A stretch of 64,000 nt of DNA from Blasia pusilla. Its lineage: Eukaryota. Below the pieces are notes generated by a model. The model ran no database searches and had not been told where the DNA came from. It saw only the letters and a program-made list of their open reading frames with translations. Shown here one piece after another: positions 442 through 60,135 of this stretch (the stretch's first letter is position 1; every line of letters begins with the position of its first letter). A program made the position numbers and the translations under genes. Where the stretch lies: assembly GCA_050084515.1 (NCBI GenBank), contig CM114271.1, positions 48,732,001 to 48,796,000 of the forward strand. Reading direction: 5' to 3'.

Positions 442-1589
442 GGTGAGATTTCCAAGTCGATTGTAGAGGAGCAACTAAGTTCTATAGTTTGAGATAGGAT
501 TGCATCATAATAACCAAAACCACCCGCGCAAGAGAGTCGTATAGTAGTCATGATGGAGACTTGGGAGTTATGTCTTTCACAATCCTATAGGTATAGTGAT
601 ATGGAAAGGGCCTTGATTCAAACTAGTGGATATCGATTTAGATCAGGAGCCAAAACTTGGTCGAGGCAGGCCTAGTGGAAATGACCCATGGAGAGAAAGT
701 ATGCATCTACCACTATTATGCCCGCCAAGAGAGATGTGCTTGGAAATTGGGCAGAGAGGCAAATGTGTGGAAATTTCTGACCTAGCAATCAGCACACAAA
801 GTCACATAGGCATGCCATTCCCACTCTTGAGGAGATCTTTGATCATATTGGGCATGCAAGGATCTACAATTCTTTATATATATCTTCGAGGCGGACACCA
901 TGAATAGCCTATCAGATTGGAGGGTATGCTGAAGATGGAATTTTGGGGTATCGATCCTTGTGGGAAGGATTGTTTATATTGGTGGTGATTCTTACCATTT
1001 GGATTAAAAATACCTTGGCAGAGTTTTAGAGATCTTGGATAGGATCTTGGCAAGTTTGGATTTTGTTAGGTGTTACATTGATGATATTGTAGTCTTCTGT
1101 CACGTCTTTTAGGATAGATCGGTGGGATCTAATAGAGCGCCTTCATGAGTAGTGGAGGACACACCCAGTAGGTTGAGGGTGACCTGGTGAGGCCCTTGGA
1201 AACCTGAGATAGCAGGTTTCCCCTTCGTTTCGGCTCATTTGGAGCAATATTGAGGAACTTACTATTTTAGGTAAGTACCATTTGAGTATATGATCGACTT
1301 ACTATTTTTGGTAAGTGGCCCTTGACCTCCTACATCAGGTCAAGAGCCAAGGAGGTGACTTGGGAGAATAGGTTACCATGGAGAGAGCTTGGGAGAGGGG
1401 AGGGGTATACCTCAAGGAGAGAGAGCTTGAGAGCTCATTCTCTCTTTGTTGAACCTCTTGGCATGAGGCGGCGGAGCTATGGTACCTTGCCTTGTGAGTG
1501 TAACCCAAGCCTCTCATTAGGAGAGTGGGTTTGGTTTGACATGAGAGAGAGTGCACACCTTTGAGAGCTCATGGGGGGGGGGGGGGCGC

Positions 1590-2900
1590 CCATGGACGAT
1601 TAGCATGAGTTCTCTCAGAGATATGCATGTGAGATCGAGGCGTGGAGGCTCTACTATGACCCATATTATGTGTCATGGACGGAGCCGTTCCCAGACGAGG
1701 AGGAGGAGTCAGGAGAGGCTACTGCCTCTTCCACTAGTGACGTTTTAGGAGGGGTCACTCGCACGGGAGCAGTTGCACCGTCTAGTCGGGTTCGTCCCAA
1801 GTTCAACCCTGTGGTTGAGTTCTTTGCTGAGTTGAGGGCGAGCTACCAGGGGGTACGGACGGAGAAGTTGCGGAGCATCCATGACTTCCATAGGCGCCCG
1901 GGTGAAAGTTTGCGTGAGGCTTACACTCGCTTGCGCCGGTTGATCAACGTCACTCAGGGGGTGACAGAGGCTCAGGGTATCCAGTCATGGTACGCGATGC
2001 TGGACCAGACCCTGCGGACACGAGTGCGGGAGGGGGTGCTTCTTATGAACACCTTCCCTACGTTAAGAGATGTTTTTAGGACCGCCGAGAACATTGAACG
2101 CAACATGGCGGAGGAGAGCGTAGCCACCATGGGTTCTGGGCGAGAGCGATCACGATTGGTCGCACCACCTGCGTGCAAACAACGTGACTCGAGATAGGTC
2201 GATCGCGGGCACCACGAGCTCGGGGGAGGATACCAGGAGGCCGTGCCCACGAGACTGCGCCTTCATATGCGGCTCAAGAGCGCCGCCTACTATTACTTGT
2301 TGGTCATGTGGTGGAGCCCATCATCGCCGCGATTGCATTCGTCGGGTCATGGACGTGTGCCTCAAAGATGGAGGAGGAGATGGTCCGCACAGGAGGTTAT
2401 CGTGTGACTATTGTCGAGGTATGGTCATACACGCGCCAGGTGTTTCAGTTTACATCCTGAGTTACGTCCGGACCGAGGGCCAAAGAGGGCACCAGATCGA
2501 GTAGCCGGTCCGGGTGGGCCTAGAGATCGTGCACCAGATGGTCCCGTTGGGGGACGAGGAGCCGGAGTTGCCCGACAAGGTGGTGGAGTGCCGTGGAGGT
2601 GGTAGAGTACCACCACCTAGACGCGCCGAGGGAGATGCCGGACGTGAGGTCGGGATGGTCGCCGATCTGGCCCAGCCTACAAGAGCGGATTGCCGCTATG
2701 GCATTGAGGTTACCCGATGCCGGATCCGTGGCATCGACATCATATGGAGCGATCAAAGATCCGAGGATCTTGGATGGATGTCTTGGGTTGCCCAAATGGA
2801 GGCCGCCGCATTGTGACGCGTGGAGCAGCCGCGAGTTGATCCACGAGGGGAAGCCGAAGACGAGACTAGGCTTCCTCGGTCTTTCACGTTATCGAAGCGA
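1590..2900 (+). pseudogene. Gag region of copy 1 (5' truncated, frameshifted) with two zinc knuckles
   Basis: EKLRSIHDFHRRPGESLREAYTRL (retrotransposon gag-like), CWSCGGAHHRRDC and CDYC.RYGHTRARCFSLHPEL across ORFs 1670-2197, 2184-2504 and 2411-2605. Confidence 0.8.
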
Positions 2901-4110
2901 TGAGGACCCCATCGATGGGTCCTCATCAAAGTTCCCGGAGAGTTGGTAATGTTGTTGGTGTGCAGGCACGGAGGGCGATGGGAGAAGCAAGTGCGACGAC
3001 TCCTATTGTTGATGCTCAGGAGGGGCATGTGTCGAGCACGTTGTTGGGGGCGGCCACCGTTGTGTACCGCACTCCTTTATTTTCTGCTTCCGATGTTGTG
3101 ACGTTGGGGGGTACGCCCGCTGAGGCTTTTCGGCTGGCCACTTCACTATGTGAGCGCGGAGTTGGAGTTCCTGCATCACGTTCAGAGGTGATTGCAGAGG
3201 AGGTGATGGACCTGCCCTTGGAGCGGATGCTCGGGCCGTCCACGTCAGATTCATGGCAGGCTGCGGTTGCTAGGATGGCGGAGATGCCCGCTAGACCCGC
3301 GATAGAGCGTGCCATGGCTTCTCCTCGTGTTGTGTTGCTGGATAACCAAGGAGAGGTCTTCCAGTTGGTGAGTCATGGAGGTATAGCTTTTAGTCCGCAG
3401 CGCGTCTTGTTGGATTCAGGAGCGCAACCCTTGATGTTGGGGAAAGCGTCATTCAGAGGATTGGGCTTAACGAGAGCCGATGTGGAGCGTTGTCCATTCC
3501 GGATACAGACATCTTTGGGTGGAGCGAGTACCACACAGTATATCACCCGACAGGAGGTCGTGGTGAGGATTTGCCCGGGACATCCTATAGATGAGTCCGT
3601 GGTGCGCGCCAAGGCGATAGTGACTGATGCAGAGTCCTATGACGTCTTGGTTGGTGGAGCAGTGTTATACCCGATGGGGTTTTCCCTGGATTACTGGGAG
3701 GAGTCAGCGTCCTATAGACCAGGATGGCACTCAGGTGATGGGCGCCTTAGCTCATTACCCGTTCGATTCACAGGTGCAATGATCGAGCAACGGCCAAGAG
3801 AGATGGCGACCTTAGTAGCATTTAGCAGTGCCATCACTTGGCCTAGTGATTTGATTGAGGGACATGTCCATGCAGAGGATACTCCCGTTCCTGACATTTC
3901 TATGGAGAGGAGTGTTATGGTAGCTGCATCATTCCATGGAGGAGAGGTGCATTTGTGGGGCTCGACCGAGGAGCTTCAACGATTGGCAGATGAGCACGTG
4001 CAGATCGCGTGGAGCGAGGCGTTTGCACCAGAGCGTGACGGGTCTGAGGAACCCGAGGTAGCAGGGAGTGCTACGATGACACCCTTGGATACCACATCCA
4101 TTTGTGTGGT
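2900..4110 (+). CDS. Retroviral-type aspartic protease segment of the copy 1 polyprotein
   Basis: VLLDSGAQPLM catalytic motif and YDVLVG C-terminal motif in ORF 2900-4159. Confidence 0.85.
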
Positions 4111-4124
4111 GTACCCCGGAGGAG

Positions 4125-5080
4125 GGTATTCGAGTGTTAGATCTCTTTGGAGGGATTAGCACGGATTAGCTGCTTTTTTGCACGCAGGAGTGCGAAAAGT
4201 ACAACAAAGATTTGTATGTGGAGAGTGATGATGTTGCAAGGCGGCGTCTCACTACGACATGTGGCGCAATTACGCCACGTTTTCCGACTTATTATTGTTC
4301 TGCGTCCGCAGATCTGGGTACTAGAGTTCCCTCGAGGGATATTTTGTTGTTGTTGGGGCGCAGGACTTAGAGCGGTAGGGACCATTGATTTGGTCATTGC
4401 CGGTTGGCCATGTCGGAGCCAATCGAGTCCGGACAAGGCAAGTGGGTTGGCTGACACTCGGTCCAGCTTGTTTTGGGAGATGTTGAGGGTCTTACGGCAA
4501 TTGCAGGAGCACCAGTCTCGTTCTCCAGCCTACATTTTGGAGAATGTGCCGATCTTAGGAGACTCCAGGTCACGGGTTGTGACGAGTGCTCATCAGGTGC
4601 GTGCCTGGATCGGCCCAGCAGTGTTCTTGGATCCGGTGAGTGTAGATTCTAGAGCCCATCGCTCGCGTCTATGGTGGACCAACTTGGTGCCCCATGCGGT
4701 GTTATGGATGGCGTATGCGAGAGTGGAGCGCCCCTCCCCTTTGTTAGTGGATTCCATTCTGGATCAAGGTCGTCGATCACAGGCAATGAGGCACAATGAT
4801 CGACCATCGCTGATTGTGGTCAACAGGGTAGGCAGGCCGCGGGCAGCCTTGCCCACGTTTGTGAGTTTTCCCGCTTCCTATGCATACAAGGAGGCCGGTC
4901 CTAGCTTGGTTTAGGATGACCAGGTTCAGCGGTTGGTGGAGCCCAACGCCGATGAGAGAGAGCGAGCGATGGGATTTCCCACAGAGTGACGGCAGTACCA
5001 CCATCGATGTCGAGGCATCACGACGTCATGTCTTGGGTCAGCGATGGACATGAATCGCTTGACATGGATCCTCGCCTTGG
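4125..5080 (+). CDS. C5 cytosine DNA methyltransferase domain within copy 1 Pol (frameshifted as assembled)
   Basis: Motif I IRVLDLFGGIS (about 4127-4160), IV DLVIAGWPC, VI YILENVP, VIII AHRSRLWWTNL, IX VEPNADERERAMGFP, X RRHVLGQ.MD. Confidence 0.9.
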
Positions 5081-5479
5081 GAGTGGCGGCGTCGTATGAG
5101 ATCGCGACAGATCACGGCGGTTTGCGTTGGTGAGCCCCATGCCTCACGGAGACGGTGGAGGCAGTGGTCGGGGCGAGACCCGAGGAGATCTACGCACGGG
5201 GAGATCGGAGAGACACCCTTGACTTCTTGGGATGTTTTGCAGTACGCGAGGAGATGATAGCCACATCATCGAAGCGTGGTTTTGGGCAATCGCACGTTGA
5301 GGAGATCGAGTTTGCGATTGGATGAGGAGAGCGGCCGAGTGTTGTTGTTCGAGACGGGTTGCACCATAGCAACCGCCGATACCCGCCGGAGAGTCCTACC
5401 GTAGTCACGATGGAGACTTGGGAGCCGATATGGGCCCTAAGTTGACAGGAGGAGAGCGGCGCCAAAACATCAGTTCCTC

Positions 5480-6830
5480 GGGAGTTATAGGAGCGCTGCG
5501 TTTAGCATGGAGGATTTGGGTACGCTGAAGGGACCGGGATCCGCATTGAGTTGTCGAGTGATATGCGATCTTCCGACAACCCTACAGTACTGATGATATG
5601 GAGAGGGCTCGATTGAGTAGGAGCCGAGGACTTGGTCGAGCAGACTAGTGGAGATGTCGCATGGGGAGTATGCATGTGCCCTTTGTCATGCCCGCCAAGA
5701 AGGATGTGCATGGCAATCGGACGGATAGGCGGATGTGTGGGGATTACCGACCTATCAATCGGCGATTTAAGTCCGATATGTATGCCATGCCCACCCGTGA
5801 GGAGATATTTGATGCGATTGGTCACGCAAAGGTCTTGATTCATTGGATTTAGAGCGGATACCATCACCGCCTATCGATTGGAGGACAGTGAGACGGCATT
5901 TTGGGGCATCGATCCTCACGAGAAGGATTATTTGTACTAGTGGAGGTTCTTACCATTTGGGTTAAAGAACGCCCCGGCTGAGTTTCAGAGAGTCATGGAT
6001 AGGATCTTTGGTCTGGATTTTGCTAGGTGTTATATTGATGACATCGTAGTCTTTAGCGCCATGGTTGAGGAGCATGAGCAACATCTAGAGGAGGTCTTTC
6101 GCGATTGCAATTACATGGTGGCTACATCCAGGCAAGTGCAAGTTCTTCTACGACCAGATAGAGTACTTGGGTCATACGATATACCAGGGGGCCTTGGTGT
6201 TCAGAGAAAGGTAGAGGCTATCTCACACATTCCACGCCCTCACAGATGTGAGCCGTGTTCGCGCATTCATGGATTGGCGAACTTCTATCGGCGATCGTTA
6301 AGGGATTGATTCGATTTGCGGCCATGACCTTGCTGACCAAGGTGGATCACGAGTGGCTTGGGGATGAGCAGGAGCGAGCATTTCGATTGCTCAAGGACAT
6401 GTTGACGTCCGCACCCATCTTGAGGAGACCGATCGGGCGCCCTTTCATTGCACACAGATTGGAGCATGTTGGGGCTTAGAGCGGTGCTCACCCAACATGA
6501 TGATGAGGGTAGAGAGTTCCTAGTGGCTTATGCTAGCCGCTCAAACAACGCCGCAGAGGCGGCACGGCTAGCCTCGTATGAGGGTGAGTGCTTGGTCATG
6601 TGTGGGTTTCGTCGCGCATTTCACCGGTGGACTTATTCGGCAATCCTTTACCATCATCATCGATCATCAACCACTGAAGTGGTTGATGGAGTCCGGCTGC
6701 TTACAGGGACGCTTGTAGATGGGCCTGTTGTTGCAGGAGTATGATTTTCACGTGGTACATAGACTTGGGACGCTCAACCAGGATGCAGATGGGTTGAGTC
6801 GTAACCCATGCCCAAGTCAGCAAGATGCAA
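5480..6830 (+). pseudogene. Reverse transcriptase and RNase H of copy 1 (many small indels)
   Basis: RRMCGDYRPIN, FLPFGLKNAPAEFQRVMD, CYIDDIVVF, HTDWSMLGLRAVLTQ, VAYASRS, LLLQEYDF..N..ADGLSR. Confidence 0.92.
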
Positions 6831-7171
6831 CTGGAGCTCGATGGCATGGAGAGAGTGATGAGGAGTCGGTGCCAAGATGGCACGCGTCAGCCTATTTAGG
6901 CATGTTGGCTATGGAGAGCCAGAGTGTCTAGTGGAGAGTCCTTGGATCCCGAGGCCAGTGAGGACACGACAAGTGGCCGAGATATTCATGATGATGGAGT
7001 AGTCTTAGAGTACCTTCGTACTGGCACCTTGCGAGCACCATGGATGCTAGAGAGCGGGATCGGATCCTACAGCGGGCCAGATGGTTCCGTTGGGAGGGGA
7101 CACATGTTTTGAGGGTTTGGGAGGATGGTAGAGTACGCGTAGTGCCGCATCCTTTGTAGAGAGCACGACTA

Positions 7172-8236
7172 GTGCAACATGCCCACGAGGAGTTGGGTCA
7201 CTTTGGGGTGAAGCGGACGTATAGCTTGCTCCAGATTCAGTATTGGTGGCGAGGCATGCAGACTGACGTTCAACAGTTTGTTGCCAGGTGCATGGGGTGT
7301 GATCGGGTCCGAGCATCGTTCAATGCTCCGACTCCACAGTTGCATCCATTACTGATCATGGGCTTAGGGTATAGATGGAGTTTGGATTTTGCAGGACCTT
7401 TGCCCTTGACGGAGCGTCACAGTCGTTATGTGTTGGTGATGGTCGAGCACTTCTTGAAGTGGATCGAGTTGGTTGCATTGCCTGACAAAGCAAGTGAGGG
7501 AGTAGCTTATGCCTTCCTTGACAAAGTGCTGAGTCATTATGGCGCACCGGCTGAGGTGTTGACAGACCAGGGTACCGAGTTTCACGGTGAGTTCCAGGCC
7601 TTGTGTGATCAGGCACTGATCGACCACCGCACAACTTTGCGAGATCATCCTGAGGCGGATGGATTAGCGGAGAGAGTTGTGCAGATGGTGAAGAGGGGTT
7701 TACGCAAGTATGGCTTGCAGAGAGGTCACCTAGGAGATTGGGACCTCCAGTTGCCATGGTTGGCGATGGGATACAGATTCAGCAGACAGGCATCCTTAGC
7801 GTCTTTTTCACCGTACTTGCTACTTTATGGTCGAGAGCCAGATTTACCTGCGGCCATTCGTCGAGATGCTGGTGAGGTGCTGAACCTTGATGAGCCAGAT
7901 GTATGGGTGCGAGCATGTTCTCAGAGGGCTGAGTTATTTCGGAGAGTAATGCCCATGGCGTTTGAGAACTTGGCGATTGCACACGATCGGGATATGTTGA
8001 GGTTTGTGACTATTCGAGGTGGTGGTTATCGACCAACTATCCGGAGGTTTCATCAGGGAGATTATGTCTACTTGCAGCAGACGACACCGACGACGTTGGA
8101 TGTGACTGCAGGGCGCACTATCCTGAGAGTGCGTGACATTTTGCCCTCGGGTGATCTCTTGCTGGAGGGACGCGATGGTATGGTATGGAAGGACCATGTG
8201 CGTAATTGTGCGCCATGTCACCTTCCTAACATTTGA
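7172..8236 (+). CDS. DDE integrase of copy 1 (HHCC finger, rve core, C-terminal SH3-like module)
   Basis: HAHEELGHFG..C..C, WSLDFAGPL, LTDQGTEF, HPEADGLAER, FSPYLLLYGR, RFHQGDYVYL. Confidence 0.95.
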   Translation: MQHAHEELGHFGVKRTYSLLQIQYWWRGMQTDVQQFVARCMGCDRVRASFNAPTPQLHPLLIMGLGYRWSLDFAGPLPLTERHSRYVLVMVEHFLKWIELVALPDKASEGVAYAFLDKVLSHYGAPAEVLTDQGTEFHGEFQALCDQALIDHRTTLRDHPEADGLAERVVQMVKRGLRKYGLQRGHLGDWDLQLPWLAMGYRFSRQASLASFSPYLLLYGREPDLPAAIRRDAGEVLNLDEPDVWVRACSQRAELFRRVMPMAFENLAIAHDRDMLRFVTIRGGGYRPTIRRFHQGDYVYLQQTTPTTLDVTAGRTILRVRDILPSGDLLLEGRDGMVWKDHVRNCAPCHLPNI

Positions 8237-8276
8237 TGGTACAATAGATCCGAGCTTAGCAGTAGTTCTTGCAGGC

Positions 8277-8423
8277 TTGCGTTGTATGTTGTGTGATTCT
8301 GCCCGTGGTGCGGCCACGATGCTAGTCTGTGATGGGTGTTCGAGAGGATGGCATATGGCATGTTTGACGCCACCCCTCACTAGGGTTCCTCAGGGACGAT
8401 GGATGTGTCCCAGATGTACATAG
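8277..8423 (+). CDS. PHD finger ending the copy 1 polyprotein
   Basis: CMLCDSARGAATMLVCDGCSRGWHMACLTPPLTRVPQGRWMCPRC is a C4HC3 PHD; one frameshift at about 8232 separates it from integrase, but the fusion is in frame in copy 3 (ORF 53160-53594). Confidence 0.93.
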   Translation: MRCMLCDSARGAATMLVCDGCSRGWHMACLTPPLTRVPQGRWMCPRCT

Positions 8424-10047
8424 AGAAGGTAGTTCTACATTCCGACTTGTGTGTGTGACATGGATAACAAGGAGGCGACTAACGATGGGGCCACATGAGC
8501 ACCCGGCCTTCTTGCTCTTAGCGTCCGAGAGATGTATGTCATGGTAGGTAGGGATAGATGGCTATCTGGAGTTAGAGGGACCTAACCACCAGCTAGGGGG
8601 GCGATTGGAGATATTTTGGTACTTCTTGTCTCGTTGTTTGGATGCCATGAGTTAGCATGGGATCATGCGTGTTTCTGTGTGTGTTCGGTGACAGCGATGT
8701 ATGTTGTGTAGCGATGTGTATGCGCACGACAAGCTGTCACATCTTTTAGGATAGATCGATGGGATCTAATAGAGCGCCTTCATGAGTAGTGGAGGACACA
8801 CCCAGTAGGTTGAGGGTGACCTGGTGAGGCCCTTGGAAACCTGAGATAGCAGGTTTCCCCTTCGTTTCGGCTCATTTGGAGCAATATTGAGGAACTTACT
8901 ATTTTAGGTAAGTACCATTTGAGTATATGATCGACTTACTATTTTTGGTAAGTGGCCCTTGACCTCCTACATCAGGTCAAGAGCCAAGGAGGTGACTTGG
9001 GAGAATAGGTTACCATGGAGAGAGCTTGGGAGAGGGGAGGGGTATACCTCAAGGAGAGAGAGCTTGAGAGCTCATTCTCTCTTTGTTGAACCTCTTGGCA
9101 TGAGGCGGCGGAGCTATGGTACCTTGCCTTGTGAGTGTAACCCAAGCCTCTCATTAGGAGAGTGGGTTTGGTTTGACATGAGAGAGAGTGCACACCTTTG
9201 AGAGCTATGGTGTGAGATGGTGGAGAGAGAGATTGGATCTTACTTTATTGGAGATATTTTGGTACTTCTTGTCTCGTTGTTTGGATGCCATGAGTTAGCA
9301 TGGGATCATGCGTGTTTCTGTGTGTGTTCGGTGACAGCGATGTATGTTGTGTAGCGATGTGTATGCGCACGACACTTCAGTGCCATGGTTGAGGAGCATG
9401 AGTGACATCTAGAGGAGGTATTTTGACAATTGTACTTACATGGGCTAAAGCTACATCTAGGCAAGTGCAAGTTCTTCTACGACAAGATTGAGTACTTGGA
9501 TCATACGACATACCCAAATGACCTTGGTGTTTAGCACATGAAGGTAGAGGCTATCTCAAGCTTTCAGTGCCCTACACAAGTGAGTGGAGTTTGGGTATTC
9601 ATAGGATTGGAGAATTTCTATTGATAATTCGTCAAGGGGTTGAGTTTGATTCCAAAGCCACTAATCTTGTTGACCAAGATGGATCACGAGTGGTACTAGG
9701 TGAATGAGAATTAGAGAGTATTTCAACTCTCAAGGATGGATTAACATTCGTGCATATATTGAAGAAATTTATCAAGGGATGTCCTTTCTAGTTACATACA
9801 AATTGGAGTATGTTGGGGCTTGTAGCAGTGCTCACCCAACATGATGATGAGAATTGAGAGTTCATGGTGGCTTATACTTGTCACTTAAACAATATTGTAG
9901 AGGCAAAGTATAACTCATAGAAGAGTGAGTGTTTGATTGTAGAGTGGTTGGTTGTGCTTTGTTTAGGGTTTACTTGTTTGGCAATCCCCTTACCATTATT
10001 ATTGATCATCAACATCTTAAGCAACAAATGGAGTTCAACAAGCTTAT

Positions 10048-11151: not shown

Positions 11152-17369
<6,218 letters not shown>

Positions 17370-18116: not shown

Positions 18117-21100
18117 GGGTGGGGGCAAGACAAAGAGAGATAGCACCCATGGACTTCTTGGGACGTCCTCCGAGCGGAGAGTGCGAAGGCGTCTAGAGCA
18201 GCACATGTTCATTTTTTTGGATGTGGAGTATGGCGTAGGAGGTCAGAGTGGAGTGGCGGTTGCGGAGGTGGCTAGGGTTGCTACATAGAAACCAAAGGCT
18301 GAGGTTGCGTCCTCTCTGAGTGAGGTCACGATGGAGACTTAGGAGCCTATGATAGGTCTCAAGTTGATAGGAGGAGAGCAACGGCGAGTTCATAGGTTTT
18401 TGGAAGGGCATGTTAGTTGTTTTGCCTTCACTATGAGAGACTTGGGTACGTTGAAGGGTCCTGGGATACGGATTGAGTTGGCTAGTGATACGCCGATCTT
18501 TTGTCGATCCTATAGGTATTCTCGTATGGAGCGAGCCTTGATTCAGAGTAGGAGTCAGGACTTGTTGGAGGCAGGACTTGTGGAGTTATTGCATGGGGAG
18601 TATGCATGTGCCACAGTCATGCCGGCGAAGAAGAATATATACGGCAATCGGACGGATAGGCGGATGTGCGGGGATTATTGACCTATCAACCGACAGACAA
18701 AGTCGGATCGATATGCCATGCCTACTCTTGAGGAGATGTTTGATGCGGTAGGGCATGCAAAGATCTTCAGAACTTTAGATCTCCATGTTGGCTCTCATTA
18801 ACTTCCTATCAAGTTAGAGGACAGGGAGAAGACATAATTTTGGGGGATAGATCGGTTTGGGAGAGATTGTTTGTATTAGTGGTGGTTCTTACCATTTTGG
18901 TTGAAGAACGTGCCTACAGAGTTTCAGAGAGTGATGGATAGGATTCTGGCTGGCTTGGATTTTGTACGATGTTACATAAATGATATTCTTATCTTCAGTT
19001 CCAGGGTTGAGGAGCATGCGTATGAGTGACACCTCGAGGAGGTGTTTCGGTGATTGCAGTTACATGGACGGAAGTTCCATACAGGCAAGTGTAGATTCTT
19101 TCAAGACCAGATTGAGTACTTTAGACACACCATATACCCAAGTGGATTAGCTGTTTAGCAGACGAAGGTGGAGGCTATTGCGTAGATTCCATGCCCTACA
19201 GATGTGAGTCAAGTTCGAGCGTTTCTGGATTGACAAACTTCTATCGATGAAACGTCAAGGTTTTAATGCGATTCAAAGTCTTTGACATTCCTGACCCTAA
19301 ACTTGATCAGGTTTGGTTGTGGGGAGATGGTCAGGATCAAGCCTTTTAGGAGCTCAAGGATAGGTTGACATCCTCACCCATTTTACAGAGACCAATTAAG
19401 GGTCGCCCATTCCAGTTATATACGGATTGGAGAATGTTGGGTCTGAGAGCAGTGCTTACTCAAAGGGATGATGAGGAGAGGGAGTTCGTTGTGGCTTACG
19501 TAAGCCGATCGAACAAAATTGCAGAGGCAAAGTACAACTCCTATGAGGGAGAGTGCTTGGCTGCAATGTGGGCTGTGGCACATTTCAGGTGCTATCTATT
19601 CGGCAACCCTTTCACACTTATCACTGATCATCAGCCGTTGAGGTGGTTGATGGAGTTTGACAAGCTTATGGGAAGGCTTGCTAGGTTGGGCTCAATTACT
19701 ACAGGAGTATGAGTTTGAGGTGGCTCACAGGCCAGGACAGGTGAACCAAGATGTGGATGGGTTGAGTCGTAACCCATGTCAGAGAGATGACAAAGGAGCT
19801 CGATAGCACGGAGACAGTGATGAGTAGATGGTGCCCGATTGGCATGCATCTGCCTATCTTTGTTGGTTGATTATGGCAGGTCAACCGTTGGTGGTGACTC
19901 TAGTGGTGGGGTTGGATGATAAGTCTTTGCATCCAGAGGTCAATGAGGAGACGACAGGTGATCGTGATATCCATGACAACATGGAGGTTGTGGAGTTCTT
20001 GCGTACTGGCATCATAGCGAGCACAGTGAGTGCTAGGGAGCGGGATCGGATCCTACAGAGAGCGAGGAGGTTTAGGTGGGAGGGGACTCACATTTTGCGA
20101 GTATGGGGAGATTGTAGGATACGAGTGGTATCTAATCCTTCCCAGAAAGCACATGTAGTGCGACATGCCCATGAGGAGTTGGGGCATTTTTGAGTAAAGC
20201 GTACTTACAACTTACTCTAGGTTCAGTATTGGTGGCGCGGCATGCATACCGAGATACAATAGTTTGTGGCCAGATGTATGGTATGTGACCAAGTGCTAGC
20301 ATCCTTCAATGCTCCCACTCCGTAGTTACATCCTTTGTTGATTACGAGTTTAGGTTATCAGTGAGTTTAGACTTTGCGAGAGCTTCGCCATTGACGGGGC
20401 GTCATCACAAGTACGTGTTGGTTATGGTGGAGCATTTCTCCAAGTGGATAGAGTTGGTGGCACTATCGGACAAGGCAAGCAAGGGAACACCTTATGCATT
20501 TCTAGATTGTGTGCTTAGTCACTTTGGTGCACCGGCAGAGATGTTGACTGACCAGGGTACCGAGTTCAAGAGAGAGTTTCAGGCCTTGTGTAACCAGGGG
20601 CTAATAGATCACCGCACCACATCCAGATATCATCCTGAGGTGAATGGGTTGACGGAGAGAGAGTAGTACACATGGTGAAGAGAGGATTGGGCAAGTATGG
20701 CTATACAGCGGGGACAATTGAGGGAGTGGGATCTACAGTTGCCATGGTTGGCTATGGGTTATGGCTTTAGTCGGCAGGCATCCTTGGTGTCATTTTTATC
20801 ATTCTCTTTGCTCTTTGGGAGAGAGCAAGATTTACCTACAACTATTCAACGTGACATGGCAGAGGTGTTAGATCTTGATGATCCAGATATATGGGTACAA
20901 GCGTGTTCTCAAAGGGCGGAGACTTTTGTAGACTTATGCCCATGGCCTTTGAGAATGTAGCTATTGCTCAGCATAGGGATACATTGAGGTATGTGACCAT
21001 TCGTGGAGGAGGTTATCTTCAAGCTTCAATTTGTACGTGCACTTCGAATAATACCCCGGGCCTGCGTGTAGCACCCACGTTTGAACAGGTTTTTCGTAGT

Positions 21101-21884
21101 GAGAGATGAAGACCTCACCCTCGGTTTTCCGATACGCCTTGACTTTCGGAGAAATCACATCAGCGAGTGAGTGCGCTTGTTTGATGAAGACCCCTCCTGC
21201 ATGCTCCAGCACCAAAACCTCCCTTGACCGTCTAGGGATTAGAAGGTTTCATCCCAGAGATTACGTGTATTTATAAAATGCGGCACCCACGACGCTAGAT
21301 GGCACTACACGGTGCACGATCCAACATGTGCGCGAGATTTTACCGACCAGAGTCCTCATGTTGGAGGGACGGGATGGTATGGTTTGGAAGGATCATGTGC
21401 GCAACTGTGCGCCATGTCACCTTCCCAACATGAATGGGATAGTGGATCAGAGCTTGGCAGTGGTACCTACACGCTAGCTTGAGGTGTATGTTGTGTGGAT
21501 ATGCGAGGGATGCAGCCACCATGTTGGTCTATGATGGTTGTTCTCGAGGGTGGCATATGTCATGTCTGACCCCCCCCCTCTTGATGTAGTTCCCACGTGA
21601 CGATGGATATGTCCGAGATGTGTATAGTGTAGTAGGTCATGTCAGGGAGATGTGATATTTTCTATATAGAGTTGGGGGGATCCAACTGCCAACTAGGGGG
21701 ACGGTTGTGTGATCTCGATGTATATGTATGAGTTGATTTCTGTACATGTGTGGATCTATCCGTGTGTGGGGATGTGATCAACGATGTATGTTGTGTAGTG
21801 ATGTGTATGCGCACGACAATTGTCACATGTGAGTAGCCGATAGGCCGAGATCTATCGTGGATAGGGCATAGGAGGCTGCAGACT
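18117..21884 (+). mobile_element. Truncated, decayed copy 2 of the family: RT, RNaseH, integrase, PHD, B1 (about 21705-21818) and the start of A2 (21821-21884)
   Basis: RRMCGDY, CYINDILIF, LYTDWRMLGL, HAHEELGHF, LTDQGTEF, PHD remnant about 21480-21625, then CTAGGGGGACG and the junction GCACGACA-AT-TGTCACAT. Confidence 0.92.
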
Positions 21885-31264: not shown

Positions 31265-34200
31265 ATGATGGCGAGAAGATTGCAGCGATGGATTCCCAGA
31301 ATGAGGACTGTGGCAGCCATGTCTGCTGCCACCGCTTTCTCGGTCACTACAGTCATCACTCTTTCACCGACGGACTCGCTTCCTCATTCTATGGCCCTCT
31401 CCTTGATTCCAGCATGGCCTCATGGACACATGGCAACGCTGCTTGCTGCACAGCAAGGCGTATTACGGTCATCACGAGCAATTTTCACGGTTCTTCACTA
31501 GTCCCTTACCTTCTTACTCACCTAAATTAACGAGGATTGAACCAACGACCTTGCTATATCTCATCAGTTCAAAGGTTCCAATGAACTCTGAGGGGCATAC
31601 AAAGAATAAATTACCTCTCAATTTTCACTGTTCTCACCTAATCCCTGACCTGCTTGCCAGACTACTTAGAGTTATTGTAACGACACTATTCTTTCTGGTT
31701 GCATACGACATCTATTTCCATTACTAAAAAGGGTTACCTTGCGGAAGGATCATTGCACACACAATGCAGCCCCCCCTCCTTTGTATCTCTGATGGGTTTT
31801 CCATCAAGCGTTTCATTGAAGTTAATCCTCGCTCAAAAAAAGGGTTACCTCAAATGTGGAGAGAATTAATTGAGAGAGGAGTTAACTGATTCTTTGAGTC
31901 TATTTCTACAGAAACCAGTGGGAGTTTCCTTGCTGTGAACTTTAGGGTGGTTGCGAGACTTGCCATTTCCATGCATCAATTCAAAGGTTGTAGTCTGAGG
32001 ATGAAACGTTCCATCACACTTCCGTCTCTACTGTTGGAAGATGGCGTGATCATAGTACCACTTCATACCCTCAAATTCTGGAAACTGACATATCCTTGCA
32101 TGAGAAGGCTTATCCGTGCCAATACAATATCAAAAGCAAAATACAAGGTAGAAGACAGTGCAAGCATGGCTTATCTTCTTGTCCATTTTATCCTTGGACC
32201 CTGTGGGCTTGTCTACATTCGTAGTAAATCTACGATTCGCTCCAGTGGCTCTCCCTCTGGAAATGAATGTCCTTGCATGAGAAGGGTTCTCTGCGCTCAG
32301 ACAATTATCAAGAAAGAAATAAGATAAGAGGGGTTTTAAAATTAAGAGGGAATTTAGCAATTGAGTAGTGAGGAAAGGACAATGAGGACTTTTGGAAATG
32401 AGGGGAAAGGAATTTCTGTTTGTATTGTGCATTGCACAGGGTTACTCGTACTATGAATGACAATCATATATGTTCATATCCTTTGTCAACATGTAGAGAC
32501 ATGAGAATAGATGGGAGCTTTGCATGCTCAAACAGAGATTCTGTAGATGCCGAAATTGTCATTCACAAATGCCATTGACTTGATTATTATCCGTGTGTTG
32601 AGAAAATGTGATAGCTCTAATGGTATTGGAAAGAATTTTTGTAGACCATTTTCCCCCCCTCTCTCGCACAGAATGTGCAAGGGTAAGAAGATTAGGTAGA
32701 AAGAGAAATTGTTTAATCGATTGTCTTACCCAGACTTGAATCTCTCTCAGGGTTAGTGTATTCCTGCCTCATAGTCTGACTTCAATCTTTCTTGTTTCTG
32801 GGGACAACTTTAGCTCTCTGTGTGCTTTTTGTGAAAATGGAGTGACATATCTGGGTGTTGATAGGGAGTCATTTTTTTGTCGGACATGGGAAAGTGCAGT
32901 ATTTTTGTTCATTATCTATTTGATGAGGATTTCCAATTTTGTTTGCAGTTTACTGTGAATAGTTTGGACTACAAATATAGTCTGAGAGACTATGAAGAGA
33001 AGTCGGATGAATATTATGAGGCGCGTTCACAGGTCAGACTCTCATCCAGGATATGTTCCAATTGTTGAAGGTTTGTCATTTCTTTCATGATAGTATGAAA
33101 TGAAGATTGTTGCCTTTGGTTTCAGTCTGTACCTGATGGAGGCTCTCTAAGTTTCTACAAGAGAGCATGTGCTCTAGTTGAACATATACAAGAGTTAGCT
33201 TCTTTGGGAAACGCTGGTTACTTTTGCTGTCACTTGTCGTGCATGATTTTGCATACCTTGGTACTGCAAATATGTATTTTCAAGTTCCCTGGACCTCTTA
33301 GGTCCCTGTGGACAATAAATCAGTTCATTTATTCGCTATGACTCATCAAACTTCGTCAAGGGGATGGGACAATATATGGCAGGGCAATTAACAATGCACA
33401 TCACTGAATTATAATGTTGTGTTTGTTTACAGGTTCATGGACGAGCGGCAAAGCGAATCCTAAAACTCTGTCAGTCAAACAGAGGCTTCTATGTCAAAGC
33501 AGGTCAATTTGTGGCCTCTCTGCAAAATATTCCAAGAGAATACGTCTCTACTCTTTCAGTTTTACAAGATCAAGTAAGAAGGTCTACTTGCTTGAGTCAA
33601 TCTCTCTTATTTGCGTATTACATCCATTTTTACATTTCTGTAAAAGGACTGGCAGCACTTGCTGCATTCAATTTTGTTACTACATTTTCCAAGCATGTGG
33701 AGGAGATAATTATGTCTAGATACTCTTCCAAGTTTGCATTCAGATCCCAGGGAAGATTTCGTATACACAGTAATTGAAGTGGGAGAGGACATGGATGCCA
33801 CAGAGGACAGTTCATGATTGATATAGAATTTTGGTGGTTTTCTTTGTTTTTGTATGTATTTGATAATTGCAGGTACGACCATGGCCATTTCAGGCTATAG
33901 AGGTGGTCATTAGAAGCGAATTGGGCAGAAATGTTTCAGACATGTAAGTATAAAAGATTTCTTTTCAAATCTCGTGGGCACAGTTGTTGGTGGCCAGTTG
34001 TGTGGCAGTAGTACTGAGGCAGTGCAAATAATTGTGACCATGTCTGTTTGGCAGTCCTGTTTCAAAGTGATTGCAGGCCAACTGACAAAACTGTTTAGAA
34101 CTCAATATCTTTTTTCCAGAGTCCTTGTGTGACAAAGCTCCTACTGTCTTGGTCCCTATTACACCCTAATTCTTGGATATTTAGAAATCCTCAGTTTTGA

Positions 34201-37200
34201 TGGAAAGAATGAAAGGTTAAAGGTTATCTTGAAGTAGATACGTCATCCAGAAAATTGGGCAAGGCTCTTAATGCACAACCACTAACCTAGTAAAAGACGG
34301 GTGTTGGATGGATAAAGCCTAGCGCAGGTCATTCCCACTGTAATTCAGACCATGATGAGGTAGGAAACTCAGATGAGTTGGGTAAAATACCGGCAAGATT
34401 GTTGTAAAGGGAGTAGTGTATTCCTAGCAGTAGTGGGAAATTTACAAGGGTGACCAAATGAGTCTCTGAACAGACAATTGTGAGCTCTCTTAGCAAAAGA
34501 ATTCATACTGTTGACACTTTCAAATTCAGTGATGAGTGAACCCATAGTGAAGCTTAAGTTTTCTTTCTCTTTGTTCCTTTAAATGATATTGATGCTCCTT
34601 GTTTTTTGCTGCCAGTTTTGCAGAATTTGATGAGCTGCCTATTGCCGCTGCCTCACTCGCTCAAGTCCATCGTGCTCTTTTGAAAGATGGACAAGAAGTT
34701 GCTGTGAAAGTGAGTCTCATTCTTTAAGGGTTTCTAATTGGCTTGTAACTTCAGCTTCGAGAAATTCAACTTGAACCACCGGTACCTCACACTCTGGGTT
34801 TATCTCCTAAACTAAGTCCCATGGCCCTCCGAACTCCTCGTGGACAATAGATCTATTCATTAATTCCCCTATTTTCTTAGACGACATTGTTGGAAGTATT
34901 TAGGGGAGTTCTGATTCCTCACACACTTTGAAGAGATTAAAATTTATGGCTTGATGGTTGGGGTATTTAGCAAGGCCTCCCAAGAGACTTTGTAGTCCTC
35001 TCAAGTGGACAAATTCCATCTCCATAAGAGAACATAGTAGTTTTGTCAAGAAAGTCCTATCAACAGGAACAGTCCCTCCAAGATGACAATAAACTTAACC
35101 ACCAATTGTCCCTGCTTTGCTGCTTTCATGTGCTGCTTTGTATATCCATGAACTTCTACCCACGACTCATTTGTGAACCGTAAATGGACACCCATTGTTT
35201 TTCTACATATTCATTACTCTAAACTGCATAAATAAGAAGTTAGTTTACTTACCAAATCATTACGGGCATAGGAATTGGAGAATACACATGTGAATTGGTG
35301 ACTTGAAAATGGGCAGTACATTGCATGGGCTCCCCTCTCTAGTGGTAGTGTGATGTAAGAGTATGAGGATTAGGTGAGGGGTTCATTTCCTGTAATTGTT
35401 ACTTTTTTGATTTTGTGCGGATGTGATTTTGATTCTGTTGAAAGATGAATCAGGTGAGTTACATAGAATGTGATGTGTGAGTGTAAGTTGATACCTTGAG
35501 CCTAGCCCAAACCTTGTAAGTATTTTCTGTTGTCCACCACATCCTACCCTCTAAAACAAGTTTGTCCGCTGTAGATTATGTGCCAACAAGGTTTTCTCTC
35601 TCGACATGTGAATGGGATAGAATAATTTAGTGGTACAAACTAAAACCAGAGGTCTATCTTTAGTTGAAAGGAAGGAGGTTTGGGAGCATGTGAATTAGGA
35701 GCCATCTTTTTAGAATATCAGGGTTTCTCTACAACCTAGCTCTCACAAGCACACTTTGTGCAATAGCAACCACTCAGGTTAGATTGTAGAGGAAAGTACT
35801 AGACAACCTGTACCACCAGACTACCTAACAAGCACTCTTAGCGCAATAGCAACCACTCAGGTTAGTACTACTAGACACCTTGCATCACAAGACTCACTGA
35901 ACCCCTCGGGTCAGCAGACCACTCAGTCTGTAAGCAGAAAGAAGCACACTGCACTACTGAGGTCAGAAAAATACTCCACTCAGGTAACCAAAGCACACTC
36001 GGTGCTGCTCAATCAGATCCTCAATTTCAAGAGAGTTGTGTACAAAAAGGTGTGAGAGAATGTAAATTTGCAGGGCACCCTCAAGGGGTTATATACAACC
36101 AAAACATGAAGTTCTAGGTTTCAGGGTTAGGGCCTGCCGCCCATAGTAATTCACAGAATCACTGAGGTAAATCTATAGTAACAACAAATTACTATTTACT
36201 GTGGGTAAAACACTAACTTACTATTCACTATAGTAAACTCCAAGTTACTATGTTTTTACAACAAATCTAAAGGGCTGGTGTGAAGGAACTTCCAATTCCC
36301 GCCAAAAATGAGTTTCTTTGTCGATATATGTTGCCCTTTCAAGCGTTGTTGAAATAGTTTGGGATAAGGAGCTCACATGGAAAGTTTTGGACACTCTATT
36401 AATACTGCATGGAAGCTGACATCGATTCCAACCAGGAACGTTCAAAGATTCTTGGCGTTTGGAAATGGTCACGATGTGGCATTGCACATTGCCTACACTG
36501 CATGCACAATTTTTTGAAACACTTCTTTTGAAGCCAACCATCGTCAGTTTAAGGTTGGGCTGTATTATGTTCTGTGATTTTGTGGTTAAGGGAAGTAAGG
36601 GTTAGGGTGTTTAGCAAAGTTAGCAAATGGAGGCTAAATGGACGTCTCCTTCCTGTGGGCTTTATTAAAAGAGTGGTCCTCCCCAACTCAGCTAGAGAAC
36701 AGTACTTTCCCTAAGGTTACATTTTCTCACGCTGCCAGTGTGATGGTGAGTGTGTTGTGTGAGGCTCTTGCCTACTTGATTCTATTTGGATGTCAGGCCA
36801 ATTCCACCGAATGAGGAATGAGGAGGTCAGCTGCACAGACTGCAGTGTATATGGCTGTAATTGGGTGGAATGTGTGTGTGCAAATGGAGAGAGACTGGCT
36901 GGCCCGCACCTTGTCAGTATTTCATTTATTCGTCCTCTACTTTCTGCAGACTGTACTCATTAAGTAGTGCCTGTCGTAGCGTTGTGACCATAGACCCTGA
37001 ACCTTGGTTGGACGGTGCTAGAGACTGGGATGGTACGATATGAGAGGAGGGGGGCACTCTCATATAGTGTGAGTGCTGACCAGGAAGCTCTTTACAGCAC
37101 CATCTACTTTACCTGGTTGGGATCCCCAATACACATTACTTACTAGTGCAGCAGCTTTGGGCAGTGAATGTAGGAGGCTGAAACTGTGGAACATCTCGGT

Positions 37201-40200
37201 TTTACCAGCTTAGCAATATCAGGATATGCTCTTGCTCTGTGTGTTATGAATTTTGTGCAGAAGACCAAGTAGTGACTAGAGATTTCATCCTCATCTTCAG
37301 CTGCACAGTTTCAAGCCTGTCCCTTTGTTTGGTGTTGGCATCCCACACTAACGTTCCATATTCCATTGAGGGACGAATGGTATATGCAGAAAGAGCGCTT
37401 TACTTTTGATGTGATGTCCCGGAAGTCCGTTCACCTTCTTGTGACCTTCTTCAGGATTCTTCTTAATGTCGGCATCCCACATGCAGTCTTCTGAGAACTC
37501 AATGCCTCGATAGGTGTATGTGGACACTCGGTGTCCACATACACTCAAGTACCAGTGTTGGTCTTGGTCCTCCTCCTCGCCATTGAATATCATCAGACGG
37601 CACTTCAATACATTCGCCTCCACCCCCCACATGTCACACCAGATTTTGGTCTGGGAGATCATCTGTTGGAGTTTCTCTCCTGTCTATTAGTCCATGAAAG
37701 TCATCTCCAGATATGAGGGCAACAATAGAACGTTTACCCACCTGGATGCCTTGTCCACTATCCTCCATTTTCCCCAATAGTGAGTTTACGAAAATATGGA
37801 AGAATGCGAGGGAGAGTCGGGTTTAGTTAGATTTCTAGTCCACGGAAAGCCTAGACGCCTATGGGACTCCCTTCCATATTAGTGACAGTGATAATGCATC
37901 CGACAGGCACCTTCTCATCCAGATTTCTATTTGGTGTTCCCATGAAGGAGATTTGTTTTTTGGGTAGTGGCATTCCCCAAGTAGTGGGAATGCCACTGAC
38001 CTGGGGTTGAGACCGCACCCCACTGTCCAGTGTTCAAATTGAATCGGTGACCTCTGTGATAGTGTCTTAAGTGAATTCCACACTCCTTGGTCATCTACTG
38101 CTTGATGACCTCTTTGAGAGGATCTTCTGGAGCTTCATGTCCAAGTTCTTGATTCTATGTAAGTGGGGTGTAGACAAAGGACACTTGGATATAATCTGCA
38201 ATTTTGTTCAGATTTAGAACCTTTAGTTTACAAAATCCGTTAGTTCACCTCTTTCAAGACCCATACCACTGTGAAATTTTGGATCCGGTTTAGAGTCTTG
38301 TCCAACATCTTGTAACTGTGTGGTGGCAGTCGTTGGGTGTGCTGTTATTCTTCCTGTCTGGAGACTTCATTAATTACTATTTTTGTATCGTGTTTTATAT
38401 GGAAAATAGGTTCAGTATCCACAGCTTCAACAGCAGTTTCAAATGGATGTTAAAACCATGGCTATTCTTTCAAAAGCTCTATCATGGGTATGTCTCTATT
38501 CCATCACCTTTTGTTTCTTTGAGATGTAGATGGGTGTAACCTTTGGAGATAACGCAGACAGATGGAAGCAATACTTGTATGTATGCATGTATGGTGCCAA
38601 GTAAGTACAAAATTCGTAAAATCACGAATTTTGTATGTCACCATCTTCTGTATTTCTGAGAAAAGGATTGATGCTACTAGACCTGCATGAACCTACATGA
38701 GATGCTCCCAATGAAAAATGTATATCTACCATAATTTAGAGGGATTCCTGGGTGCACCTAAACACCGTCAGATACATAAATAGGTAACCTCTTAGACACC
38801 TGGAAAAGCTTCGTTCTTTCATAATTCATGGGAGGAAGAGTACAGAATGTTTAGTTGAGTAGCTAGAAGATAGCAAGCTATTGCAAGCTGTCGAGCTTTC
38901 TTTGAAGCTAGGTGCCAAGAGAAAACCAAACTATGAGTAATTCACTTAGATGCTCATCCATTGTTGACTTCTAAGAGATGGCAGTGAAGTCCTTTGACCT
39001 CTCCACGTCTTCTCTTGCTGAATCCGCTATCTTAATGATCTAGGATGTATAGCTATCTATTTGTCCTCTTGTATTTTGTAATTTATCTGCTTAGCCAATT
39101 GATGTTTCTCTCAAGTGACCTGTGAGTAACAGTCCTTTTTGGAGCTCAAAAATGGTTAAATCAAAGGGTGGTTGTTTGTCTGCAGTTATTTCCAGACTAT
39201 AAATTTGAGTGGATTGTACCAGAGTTTGAGAAAATCTTGTCAAAAGAACTAGGTATGTAATACCGTGTGAACTACGTTGGTAGATTTATGTACATTGTGT
39301 CCAGGTGATATGATGTTCTCATTCTCTGATAGTCATTCAATTTCATAGTTCACATAACCCTCTCCCGTTCTAGCGAACAGGAAAGGGCTACAAGGAAAAT
39401 TGTGAGTCAAGGGAGGTGTGATAGTCGAGTTAGCTTTCGGCTTGTCATTACCACCTCCAATTTTGTTAGCTTGGATTAAGAACTGTGTAAAGGTTTGACA
39501 AAGGGAAACTATCAAGGAATTCATTGATCCTCAAAATAATCGTGTCACGTGATTGTAAAGGATATAGTCCTATAGATTTCAGCTGAAAACGGCTCCATGC
39601 CTGCCTGCAGTTTGTCTGAATAGGACATATCATCATGCAAGCTAGGTAGCCGCTTCGATGGAGATCACCTTAGGAAGTGGACGCATGGAAAGTGTGAAAA
39701 AGATCGACCAGCAGAAGTATCTCCTGAGAAAAAGAATGACCAGCAGAAGTATCTTCTTGTACAAAGTCAGAGCTAGCATCAGCTAGACCATCCATGATTT
39801 CAGTTTGTGCACAATCAGCAAATCAGTTTCTATCTCTACACTAAATCAGAGCCCTACCATGGTGTGACTCTTCTTATTATCTAACAGATACTAAACAGGA
39901 TTCTACACAGTTACACCTTGCACTCACAATACAGATCCTCACACGTCACCAGCTCAGTGATCAGACATGGCTCACCTCATTGAGCACAAACAATTGCCTG
40001 CCAGTGAGGCTCTAGCAAGCACAGCAATTAGTCTCAATCTCCTCTTCCTATTCTCTGATCACTCTGCAGCAGGACCAAGAGCCTCAGGAGTTCTCACAAA
40101 AATTGTGCATATTGTAGAATTAGCTTCTACTCTCTAAACAGAGACATTAGATACATGAGGGTGCCCCTGGCCCTTAGATCTTCTTGAATAGGTCCATACC

Positions 40201-43200: not shown

Positions 43201-43709
43201 TGCAAGTTTGAAGGTTAGTACTTCCTAGTTCGAGGGCAGCTCAAATCTGCTTCTTGGAGTTGTGCGAGTCGGAATAGGAAGAAACGTATAGGGTATGAGA
43301 GCTGTTTTCGCATCTGTGACAGCGGATTGCTCAGGTCGATCACAAGTAAATTGGGAGCCATGCCCCGCATGCGATTGATAGCGAATGCTAAATATGCAGT
43401 CATGGGACTTTATCTACAGCATCGAGGGGAACCTGGTACGTCGCTCCCCCAAATCGATCCCGGATTTGAGCATCTGTTCGTGTTTCCAGTGTTCTGCTTC
43501 GTGTGAAAGATGAATTTGCATCTGGGCTCATTAATCTTTAGAGAGATGCATATGCCGTTATGGCCTGAATTGAATGGCTTGTTCATTTCTTCTTTGCAGT
43601 CTTGCAAGATCATGATATGTGCTGGAATGTCCTGCATCTGTCGGAGGCCTCTGATCCCCTTCCGCTTCATTATGAAGATGAAGTGGCTTCAGATCCCAAG
43701 AGGCCATAA
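31265..43709 (+). CDS. ABC1/AarF-domain atypical kinase (ADCK1/ADCK5-like); about 15 exons
   Basis: Exons 31265-31489, 32949-33032, 33433-33573 (GFYVKAGQ), 33873-33943, 34616-34709 ([15 protein letters not shown]), 38410-38487 (VQYP), 39186-39252, 41082-41167 (DFIQEGKN), 41303-41353 (LTMEF), 41479-41526, 41734-41866 (HGDPHPGN), 42005-42185 (LLDHGLY), 42649-42786, 43323-43435; last exon 43600-43709 tentative. Confidence 0.93.
36950..37821 (-). mobile_element. Internally deleted 3' fragment of the same LINE family, in a kinase intron
   Basis: ORF 37348-37662 [21 protein letters not shown] matches 15880-15990; GCACTACTTAATGAGTACAGT is shared with 17201-17221. Confidence 0.9.
39758..41027. repeat. 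Two tandem, diverged 620-645 bp LTR-like units in a kinase intron (39758-40376, 40383-41027)
   Basis: Both start TGT..AAAGTCAGA.CTAGCATCAGCTA and end AACAAATTTCAACA (TG..CA, short inverted termini); 6-bp spacer TCTCCT. Confidence 0.8.
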
Positions 43710-59608: not shown

Positions 59609-60135
59609 GGTGAAACCTGCAAACTACTATGACTCACTCCCGAGCCACTAGCTTTGCACTAGACAATGCCGAAACTGTGGACAGGCCCCCACTTATCTCA
59701 CTTGAGATCAACACTCGGCAAATAGCCCGCACACTAAGTCACTCTTGACTAGTGTGGTATACATCCATCCCACCAAGCTCTCTACAATAGTTGCGTTAAG
59801 CAACTATTGTAAGTGAATAAATCCCCCTGTGTGCAATAACTAGCCATCACTTCCTTGTGGGTGTGTTCTAACACAACATGCAAAATAACTCTCAAGTTAA
59901 GCACACTCTGGAGGAATAGAACTCGGATGGGTGACCTAGACGTTATGCTAAACCGGATCAACATCAGCTTGCCAAGTCCTCACGCCCGCCAGCAAGTTGG
60001 CGCCTCACGCCCACTCGCACTTTCGACACCTCTCCCACCTCGAAGCCTCGAAATGCCGAGAATACCCGTGATTCATCTGCCTCACCTCCCGCTCACTTCT
60101 CCGCCGCGCTTCGCTGTGCCAAACTCACATGTGAA

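Follow-up and report, generated by a model that had tools for sequence, protein, structure and literature searches.

We propose that the window, by which we mean the whole 64,000-nucleotide stretch of contig CM114271.1 analyzed here (positions 48,732,001 to 48,796,000), holds decayed insertions of a Ty3/Gypsy-type retrotransposon family that carries its own methyltransferase, and the explanation that best fits the whole, and which we regard as probable, is a polyprotein in the order gag, aspartyl protease, DNMT3-like C5 methyltransferase, reverse transcriptase (RT), RNase H, DDE integrase and PHD finger. The original prediction of a cytosine DNA methyltransferase within Pol is confirmed. In copy 1 the domain lies, as had been claimed, between protease and RT, with the motif LLDSGA upstream and YIDD and the RVT_1 domain downstream, and in copy 3, from an older and diverged subfamily, the C-terminal protease motif YDVLVG and methyltransferase motif I share one open reading frame (ORF; 56629-57315). 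Motifs I, IV, VI, VIII, IX and X are all six at the places that were claimed for them (Table 1), in the unpermuted order I-IV-VI-VIII-IX-X and alike in both copies, although in copy 1 a frame change separates motif I from IV-X, with more shifts near motifs IX-X. The DNA_methylase profile PF00145 is above its cut-off of 22 bits in both copies, with 36.4 bits on the copy 1 ORF 4141-4914 and 27.1 bits on the copy 3 read-through, in which stops were written as X. The two copies are ~68% alike in DNA and have the methyltransferase at the same place, which together with the single ORFs of natural relatives bears out the idea that it is a part of Pol and a trait of the family. A conserved DNMT3-type catalytic domain is translated within Pol.

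These relatives were found in searches with the copy 3 domain, which gave 46 longer proteins and 44 of similar length. The closest to copy 3, at 60-65% within the domain, are annotated as 'hypothetical proteins' and come from Marchantia polymorpha, from Calypogeia fissa and from unassigned contigs, followed by those of Sphagnum species and then by long polyproteins at 33-40%, one of which is from the chlorophyte Monoraphidium. The Marchantia (for example Mp_4g09160 and Mp_8g17980), Calypogeia and Sphagnum proteins are collinear with the window over gag-protease-methyltransferase(-RT) and form one clade together with it, but they represent another subfamily, with whole-length identities of 42-56%. 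In the Marchantia protein P0009 a single ORF contains PF00145 (460-529), RVT_1 (833-919) and RNase H (997-1098), and in P0070 and P0084 an aspartyl protease above cut-off stands N-terminal to PF00145, whereas the protease match in the window (PF13975) is sub-threshold at 12.8 bits and E 0.19. A profile search of 1.84 billion representatives yielded 563 proteins at E<=1e-30, and, extrapolating from its 87 bits, DNMT3A would come out well above E 1e-30 in the same search; the ten top representative matches that were checked are all from environmental contigs.

The methyltransferase-containing polyproteins fall into two architectures. The domain precedes RT, as in the window and in Marchantia, in 8 proteins, and it lies between RNase H and integrase in 25 proteins with RT ahead and directly before integrase in 10 more. 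The algal-type relatives with the order RT, RNase H, methyltransferase, integrase and PHD finger (MNEG_11595 of Monoraphidium neglectum and many unassigned contigs) share with the window a homologous methyltransferase (33-40% identity), the integrase and the PHD finger, but their methyltransferase follows RNase H while that of the window precedes RT. Homologous methyltransferases at two different places in Pol are seen in P0019, P0020, P0039 and other relatives. In a quick tree of 72 domains the 25 rows of the RNase H-side order and 6 rows of the window order are on opposite sides of a branch with support 92, and copy 3 belongs together with Calypogeia and Marchantia to a clade of 21 (support 100 in the Shimodaira-Hasegawa-like approximate likelihood ratio test, SH-aLRT). 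The tree has no outgroup and is effectively unrooted, with host DNMT3 and DRM not among its rows, and hence neither the older architecture nor the age of the capture nor an origin from host DNMT3 can be read from it. One relative, P0067, is labeled as a DNA cytosine methyltransferase of a 'Candidatus Obscuribacterales' metagenome bin, yet it groups with the eukaryotic element copies and thus its bin probably contains eukaryotic DNA.

The kind of METHYLTRANSFERASE was judged from a profile of 15 short natural relatives that were aligned. No variation is seen in 15/15 of these at the catalytic Cys, at its Pro and Trp or at the Asn of ENV, and very little at the Glu of ENV or at the His, Trp and Thr within AHRPRLWWTNL, the stretch of motif VIII. 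The catalytic motifs are present in the relatives as well as in both window copies. Against solved structures the profile matches DNMT3A at 8e-24 (87 bits), DNMT3C and DNMT3B at about 2e-21, DRM at 5e-11, M.HhaI at 6e-7 and DNMT2 at 1.6e-3, and DNMT1 is absent from the 55 matched solved-structure sequences. It is collinear with DNMT3A residues 14-182 and 246-276, whereas DRM is matched through its C-terminal 229-349 only, as is expected because DRM is permuted. An AlphaFold model of the relative P0052 (predicted local distance difference test, pLDDT, 84.5) gave in Foldseek top listed rows that are all DNMT3A/B/C, with E 4e-20, a template modeling (TM) value of 0.82 on the target and ~22% identity. 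Among solved structures, the domain is therefore DNMT3-like, as had been read from its motifs, and a DRM-type enzyme was rejected from the motif order I to X and the restricted DRM match. The window domain has the catalytic fold and the DNMT3 motif flavor in common with host DNMT3 and DRM enzymes, but it is situated in a polyprotein, no PWWP or ADD was seen with it, and its order is unpermuted, unlike that of DRM. The ESM Atlas returned 'C5 methylase, Streptophyta' together with phage clusters at equal score and was not informative.

The selective constraint on the domain was estimated by the Nei-Gojobori method, as nonsynonymous (dN) and synonymous (dS) divergence between copies 1 and 3. The ratio for the methyltransferase is 0.11 (dN 0.30, dS 2.8; 240 codons), next to 0.12 for integrase-PHD (dN 0.14, dS 1.13; 483 codons), 0.19 for the protease region (dN 0.41, dS 2.13; 275 codons) and 0.24 for RT/RNase H (dN 0.24, dS 1.03; 201 codons), but dS is saturated in the methyltransferase and protease rows and the codons come from tblastx segments picked by similarity, which lowers the ratio, so that these values show restrained amino-acid change only. 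The methyltransferase value is not near 1, and from this comparison of codons amino-acid change in the domain appears to be restrained to a degree similar to that seen elsewhere in Pol.

Table 1. Features of the methyltransferase-carrying insertions in the window and of the host gene.
Feature	Position	Strand	Evidence or remark
Copy 1 DNMT3-like C5 methyltransferase domain, motifs I-X	4137..5049	+	Pfam, motif reading; broken by frameshifts and stops
Copy 1 motif I, LDLFGGI	4137-4157	+	
Copy 1 motif IV, GWPC	4402-4413	+	
Copy 1 motif VI, ENVP	4540-4551	+	
Copy 1 motif VIII, RSRLWWTN	4660-4683	+	
Copy 1 motif IX, ERERAMGF	4954-4977	+	
Copy 1 motif X, LGSAMD	5032-5049	+	
Copy 3 DNMT3-like domain, motifs I-X	55783..56691	-	single frame with in-frame stops
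Copy 3 motif I, LDLFGRI	56671-56691	-	
Copy 3 motif IV	56419-56430	-	
Copy 3 motif VI	56281-56292	-	
Copy 3 motif VIII	56149-56172	-	interrupted by stop
Copy 3 motif IX	55855-55878	-	
Copy 3 motif X	55783-55800	-	
Copy 1, whole element (A1-coding-B1-A2-B2, TG...CA ends)	1098..9374	+	self-comparison, junction reading
Copy 1 repeat A1 (5' terminal repeat)	1097..1574	+	99.4% to A2
Copy 1 gag-like region	1583..2569	+	tblastn, Marchantia P0005 residues 60-382, 41% identity, 3 stops
Copy 1 aspartyl protease core, LLDSGA...YDVLVG	3407..3655	+	LLDSGA at 3407-3424
Copy 1 reverse transcriptase and RNase H	5568..6744	+	RVT_1 41.5 bits, RT_RNaseH_2 39.1 bits; YIDD 6031-6042
Copy 1 DDE integrase, H2C2 zinc finger and rve core	7052..8233	+	Integrase_H2C2 61.7 bits, rve 44.5 bits
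Copy 1 PHD finger after integrase	8283..8363	+	PF00628 46.4 bits on 8127-8423; C4HC3 pattern
Copy 1 repeat B1	8604..8731	+	100% identical to B2; purine run AGGGGGG before
Copy 1 repeat A2	8734..9210	+	two bases past B1
Copy 1 repeat B2 (3' element end)	9247..9374	+	36 bases past A2
Copy 2, 5'-truncated relative (RT, RNase H, integrase, PHD)	18325..21627	+	methyltransferase part none seen
Copy 3, whole element, older diverged subfamily	52050..62939	-	A repeats 62306-62939 and 52162-52773 (90%)
Copy 3 B repeats	52774-52884 and 52050-52160	-	93.7% alike
Copy 3 gag-protease-methyltransferase, single frame	55555..59256	-	tblastn, Marchantia P0005 residues 48-1263, 48.6% identity
Copy 3 protease motif LLDSGA	57394-57411	-	
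Copy 3 PHD finger (C4HC3)	about 53170-53260	-	
Host ABC1 atypical kinase (aarF-domain kinase) gene	31268..44204	+	12 collinear pieces against Marchantia orthologue residues 1-560

Copy 1 is bordered on either side by CTTC (1094-1097 and 9375-9378), a 4-bp target duplication made by the DDE integrase, and its A repeats differ by 2 transitions and 1 indel over 478 columns. The integrase retains an open frame of 358 codons (7160-8236), Retrotrans_gag in the gag-like region is under cut-off at 17.2 bits, and the three tblastn pieces contain 3 (gag), 5 (2990-4381) and 2 (4246-5112) stops. Copy 1 is nested in the RT of an older related element, which is interrupted after 633-1096 and resumes at 9375-10047; the split is directly past the RT motif YIDD (1074-1085) of the older element, a case of like inserted into like. 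A run of 12 G directly follows A1 (1575-1586). Other sequence is present in 212 genomic reads before 1582 and in 246 after 9247, from which part of the 5' leader seems to have been lost from copy 1. The inner B1/A2 joint, in which ...CA is followed by 2-3 bases and TG..., resembles a circle junction of both ends, and it may serve as a template from which the termini are rebuilt. Copy 3 has the same A-coding-B-A-B layout. Its frame over 3.7 kb has 17 stops (TAG 10, TGA 6, TAA 1) and zero frameshifts, 8 of the stops being within the 641 codons of 55501-57423, and it is without ~700 bases of the RT core. A target duplication was looked for at copy 3 and none was recognizable.

Although the window copies are dead, the family looks alive in its host, with young copies in large number and RNA made from them. 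Reads of the same organism, from one genomic and three RNA runs, were mapped on positions 1-11000, with 6-12% of each RNA run read. The 20,516 genomic reads that mapped include 19,559 at 95-99% alike and 957 at 99% or more, and the read ends match the A-coding-B-A-B layout. The summed genomic depth is 120-148 over the methyltransferase bins (4038-5138), 520-770 over repeat A, and 1.2-2.8 in the flank bins 9543-9909 and 10277-11000, which suggests, very roughly since the flank is itself an old repeat, ~40-120 family copies within 5% of copy 1. The recent mobility that had been predicted hence holds for the family, given the 99.4% terminal repeats, the 4-bp duplication and the deep 95-99% reads. 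At position 4101 a one-base length difference from copy 1 is found in 245/277 DNA reads and 42/45 RNA reads, and in the copy 1 stop at 4912-4914 another letter is found at 4913 in 179/182 DNA reads and 15/15 RNA reads. As most reads differ at several copy 1 lesions, these are private to copy 1 or its near kin. The three RNA runs gave 759, 905 and 805 mapped reads with the first mate mostly on the - strand, and so this RNA would be sense if the library is of the usual stranded type; its depth is 5-8 over 4038-4404 and rises to 35-74 near the 3' end. Relative to the family's reads, copy 1 has A for G at 73 and T for C at 57 places, with 26 and 25 in the reverse direction, and thus in the DNA run its C-to-T type differences are at 130 places versus 51 reverse.

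The host gene in the window, an ABC1 kinase, allows the host to be placed. For one ABC1 exon the best identities are with Riccia (87%), Marchantia (85%), Diphasiastrum (83%) and Calypogeia (81%), with Klebsormidium at 68%, and over six ABC1 pieces common to six references four liverworts are at 72-75%, Ginkgo at 71% and Klebsormidium at 63%. From these identities the host looks most like land plants and somewhat closer to liverworts. An extension of the family to land plants, which was originally put forward on the condition that the host is one, is in agreement with this land-plant-like gene and with the relatives annotated in liverwort and moss genomes. The ABC1 gene has long introns, in a region of 42% G+C with a CpG observed/expected value of 0.39, and when 150 of the 173 short ORFs of 21600-52100 were scanned with Pfam, ABC1 kinase pieces were all that was found.

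An element of this kind, KnitGypsy-Dnmt3, has been described from Klebsormidium nitens as an intronless Dnmt3-like domain in a Gypsy Pol (de Mendoza et al., 2018, PMC5890265). According to that paper, it has signs of purifying selection with Ka/Ks below 0.2, its repeats are the same as those of a DIRS retrotransposon (A-coding region-B-A-B; Fig. 4c legend), it has few genome copies and its capture is ascribed to the K. nitens lineage. The window family shares with it, as so described, the Gypsy domain set, the unpermuted Dnmt3-like domain in Pol, the absence of introns, the A-coding-B-A-B layout and signs of purifying selection. It differs in that its host is land-plant-like, that it is high-copy and expressed whereas K. 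nitens has few copies, and that its relatives are in liverworts, mosses and a chlorophyte, as opposed to the acquisition in the K. nitens lineage given in that paper. These shared hallmarks place the window family among the same kind of element and, with all of the checkable architectural hallmarks in common, we consider it probably the land-plant counterpart of KnitGypsy-Dnmt3. The kind has so far been described in a freshwater alga and in dinoflagellates, and here it is found in what looks like a land plant. Excerpts of a 2025 survey (PMC12344493) cite only the KnitGypsy-Dnmt3 report for streptophytes, and we found no papers on methyltransferase-carrying elements in bryophytes in a search that most subscription journals lay outside of.

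SymbioDIRS-Dnmt3 of Symbiodinium also has a Dnmt3-like domain in Pol and A-coding-B-A-B repeats, but it uses a tyrosine recombinase (PMC5890265), whereas the window family has a DDE integrase, TG...CA ends and a target duplication. The order DIRS was rejected from the presence of rve and Integrase_H2C2 and from the 4-bp CTTC duplication at copy 1. The window family is thus an instance of DIRS-style split repeats in an element with a DDE integrase, TG...CA ends and a 4-bp duplication. Chromoviruses are Gypsy elements with a chromodomain after the integrase, and they too have a chromatin-reader module fused to the integrase C-terminus, but in the window the reader is a PHD finger and not a chromodomain. 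As PHD families are the only Pfam matches at the integrase C-terminus, a chromovirus was rejected.

Taken from the sequence, the methyltransferase would be made within the polyprotein, with selection maintaining its activity. Its target may be the freshly synthesized DNA of the element itself, methylated either in the particle or upon integration, a step that we advance tentatively and rate as somewhat below even in likelihood, and the PHD finger on the integrase might read histone tails and steer insertion to repeat-rich chromatin. The stop-only decay of copy 3 and the C-to-T excess of copy 1 fit with methylated, deaminating DNA, but host methylation alone yields the same pattern. Several points, in addition to the saturated dS and similarity-picked codons, weigh against our interpretation. 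Neither window copy can make an enzyme, copy 1 having frameshifts and stops and copy 3 stops, and in motif I of copy 3 the second Gly is replaced by Arg. Motifs IV-X have little RNA coverage (0.6-3.9 over 4405-5138, from the part of the runs read), the strand of the RNA is assumed from the usual library type, and intact family members in the host are presumed. Kinship with KnitGypsy-Dnmt3 is argued from shared architecture, and no K. nitens element is among the named matches. Finally, the Klebsormidium domain gave no methylation in yeast, although in that account human DNMT3B failed there too and the authors do not take the result as decisive (PMC5890265).

The enzyme could instead have nuclear chromatin as its substrate, at the insertion site or near it, and not free complementary DNA. 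Guided by the PHD finger of the integrase, it would there set a heterochromatin-type methylation by which the element restrains its own expression or is concealed among silent repeats. We regard this as rather unlikely, if deserving of attention. Both the window and most long relatives have a PHD finger after the integrase, copy 1 is inside another element of the same kind, reads that end at the B repeat continue into varied AT-rich flanks, and the window copy has its C-to-T excess, but no observation ties the PHD finger functionally to the methyltransferase, and such an excess is typical of any host-methylated transposon. Quite improbable is a job for the domain other than DNA methylation, such as nucleic-acid binding, RNA methylation or a structural part of the particle. 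The failure of the Klebsormidium domain in yeast would agree with it, and the same source raises RNA methylation as a possibility for enzymes borne by long interspersed nuclear elements (LINEs; PMC5890265). However, motif I for the cofactor, PC, ENV and RxR are all conserved across the 15 relatives, and the nearest solved enzymes are DNA methyltransferases, with the RNA enzyme DNMT2 at E 1.6e-3 only. That a host DNMT3 gene fragment adjoins the transposon pieces by chance, or is a recently captured neutral passenger, is scarcely credible even in a window that is a pile of nested transposons, as the domain keeps its position between two diverged copies and within single ORFs from Marchantia, Calypogeia and many unassigned contigs, has no introns, shows dN far under dS, and has 563 representatives at E<=1e-30; a host DNMT3 gene next to transposons is likewise contradicted by the single-ORF relatives and by dN << dS.

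Methylation is the main weapon of plants against transposons, which makes a transposon with its own de novo methyltransferase paradoxical. The one published case from the plant lineage is a low-copy algal family in which enzyme activity was not demonstrable. The abundance of the window family in a land plant, its bryophyte relatives and the 563 representative clusters indicate that the capture is widespread in the green lineage and not a Klebsormidium oddity. Close relatives sit unnoticed among the annotated proteins of Marchantia, Calypogeia and Sphagnum, which are tractable hosts in which to ask what the role of the methyltransferase is, and counts of DNMT3 in bryophyte genomes may include transposon copies. 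A broader conjecture, which we consider distinctly unlikely as a whole, is that these elements are one ancient, Viridiplantae-wide Gypsy-like lineage with an integrase, DIRS-type split repeats, a histone-reading PHD finger and its own DNMT3 that moved once within Pol, still proliferating in a land plant at ~100 young copies and expressed enough to write part of the host methylome. If this is true, the many Marchantia copies make the role testable in a genetic model.

The window as a whole consists of nested transposons around a single host gene. A LINE-type element is at 12618-15994 (+), with Exo_endo_phos_2 at 29.1 bits and RVT_1 at 103 bits, and a piece related to it lies inverted near copy 3 (50252-51544, -). 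A PIF1-like helicase fragment at 48437-48784 (-), slightly below cut-off at 24.4 bits, is possibly a relic of a Helitron. Another high-copy repeat occupies 1-441, with a genomic depth of ~300, a sharp end at 441 and varied flanks in the reads, and an 87%-alike copy of it is present at 10208-10573.
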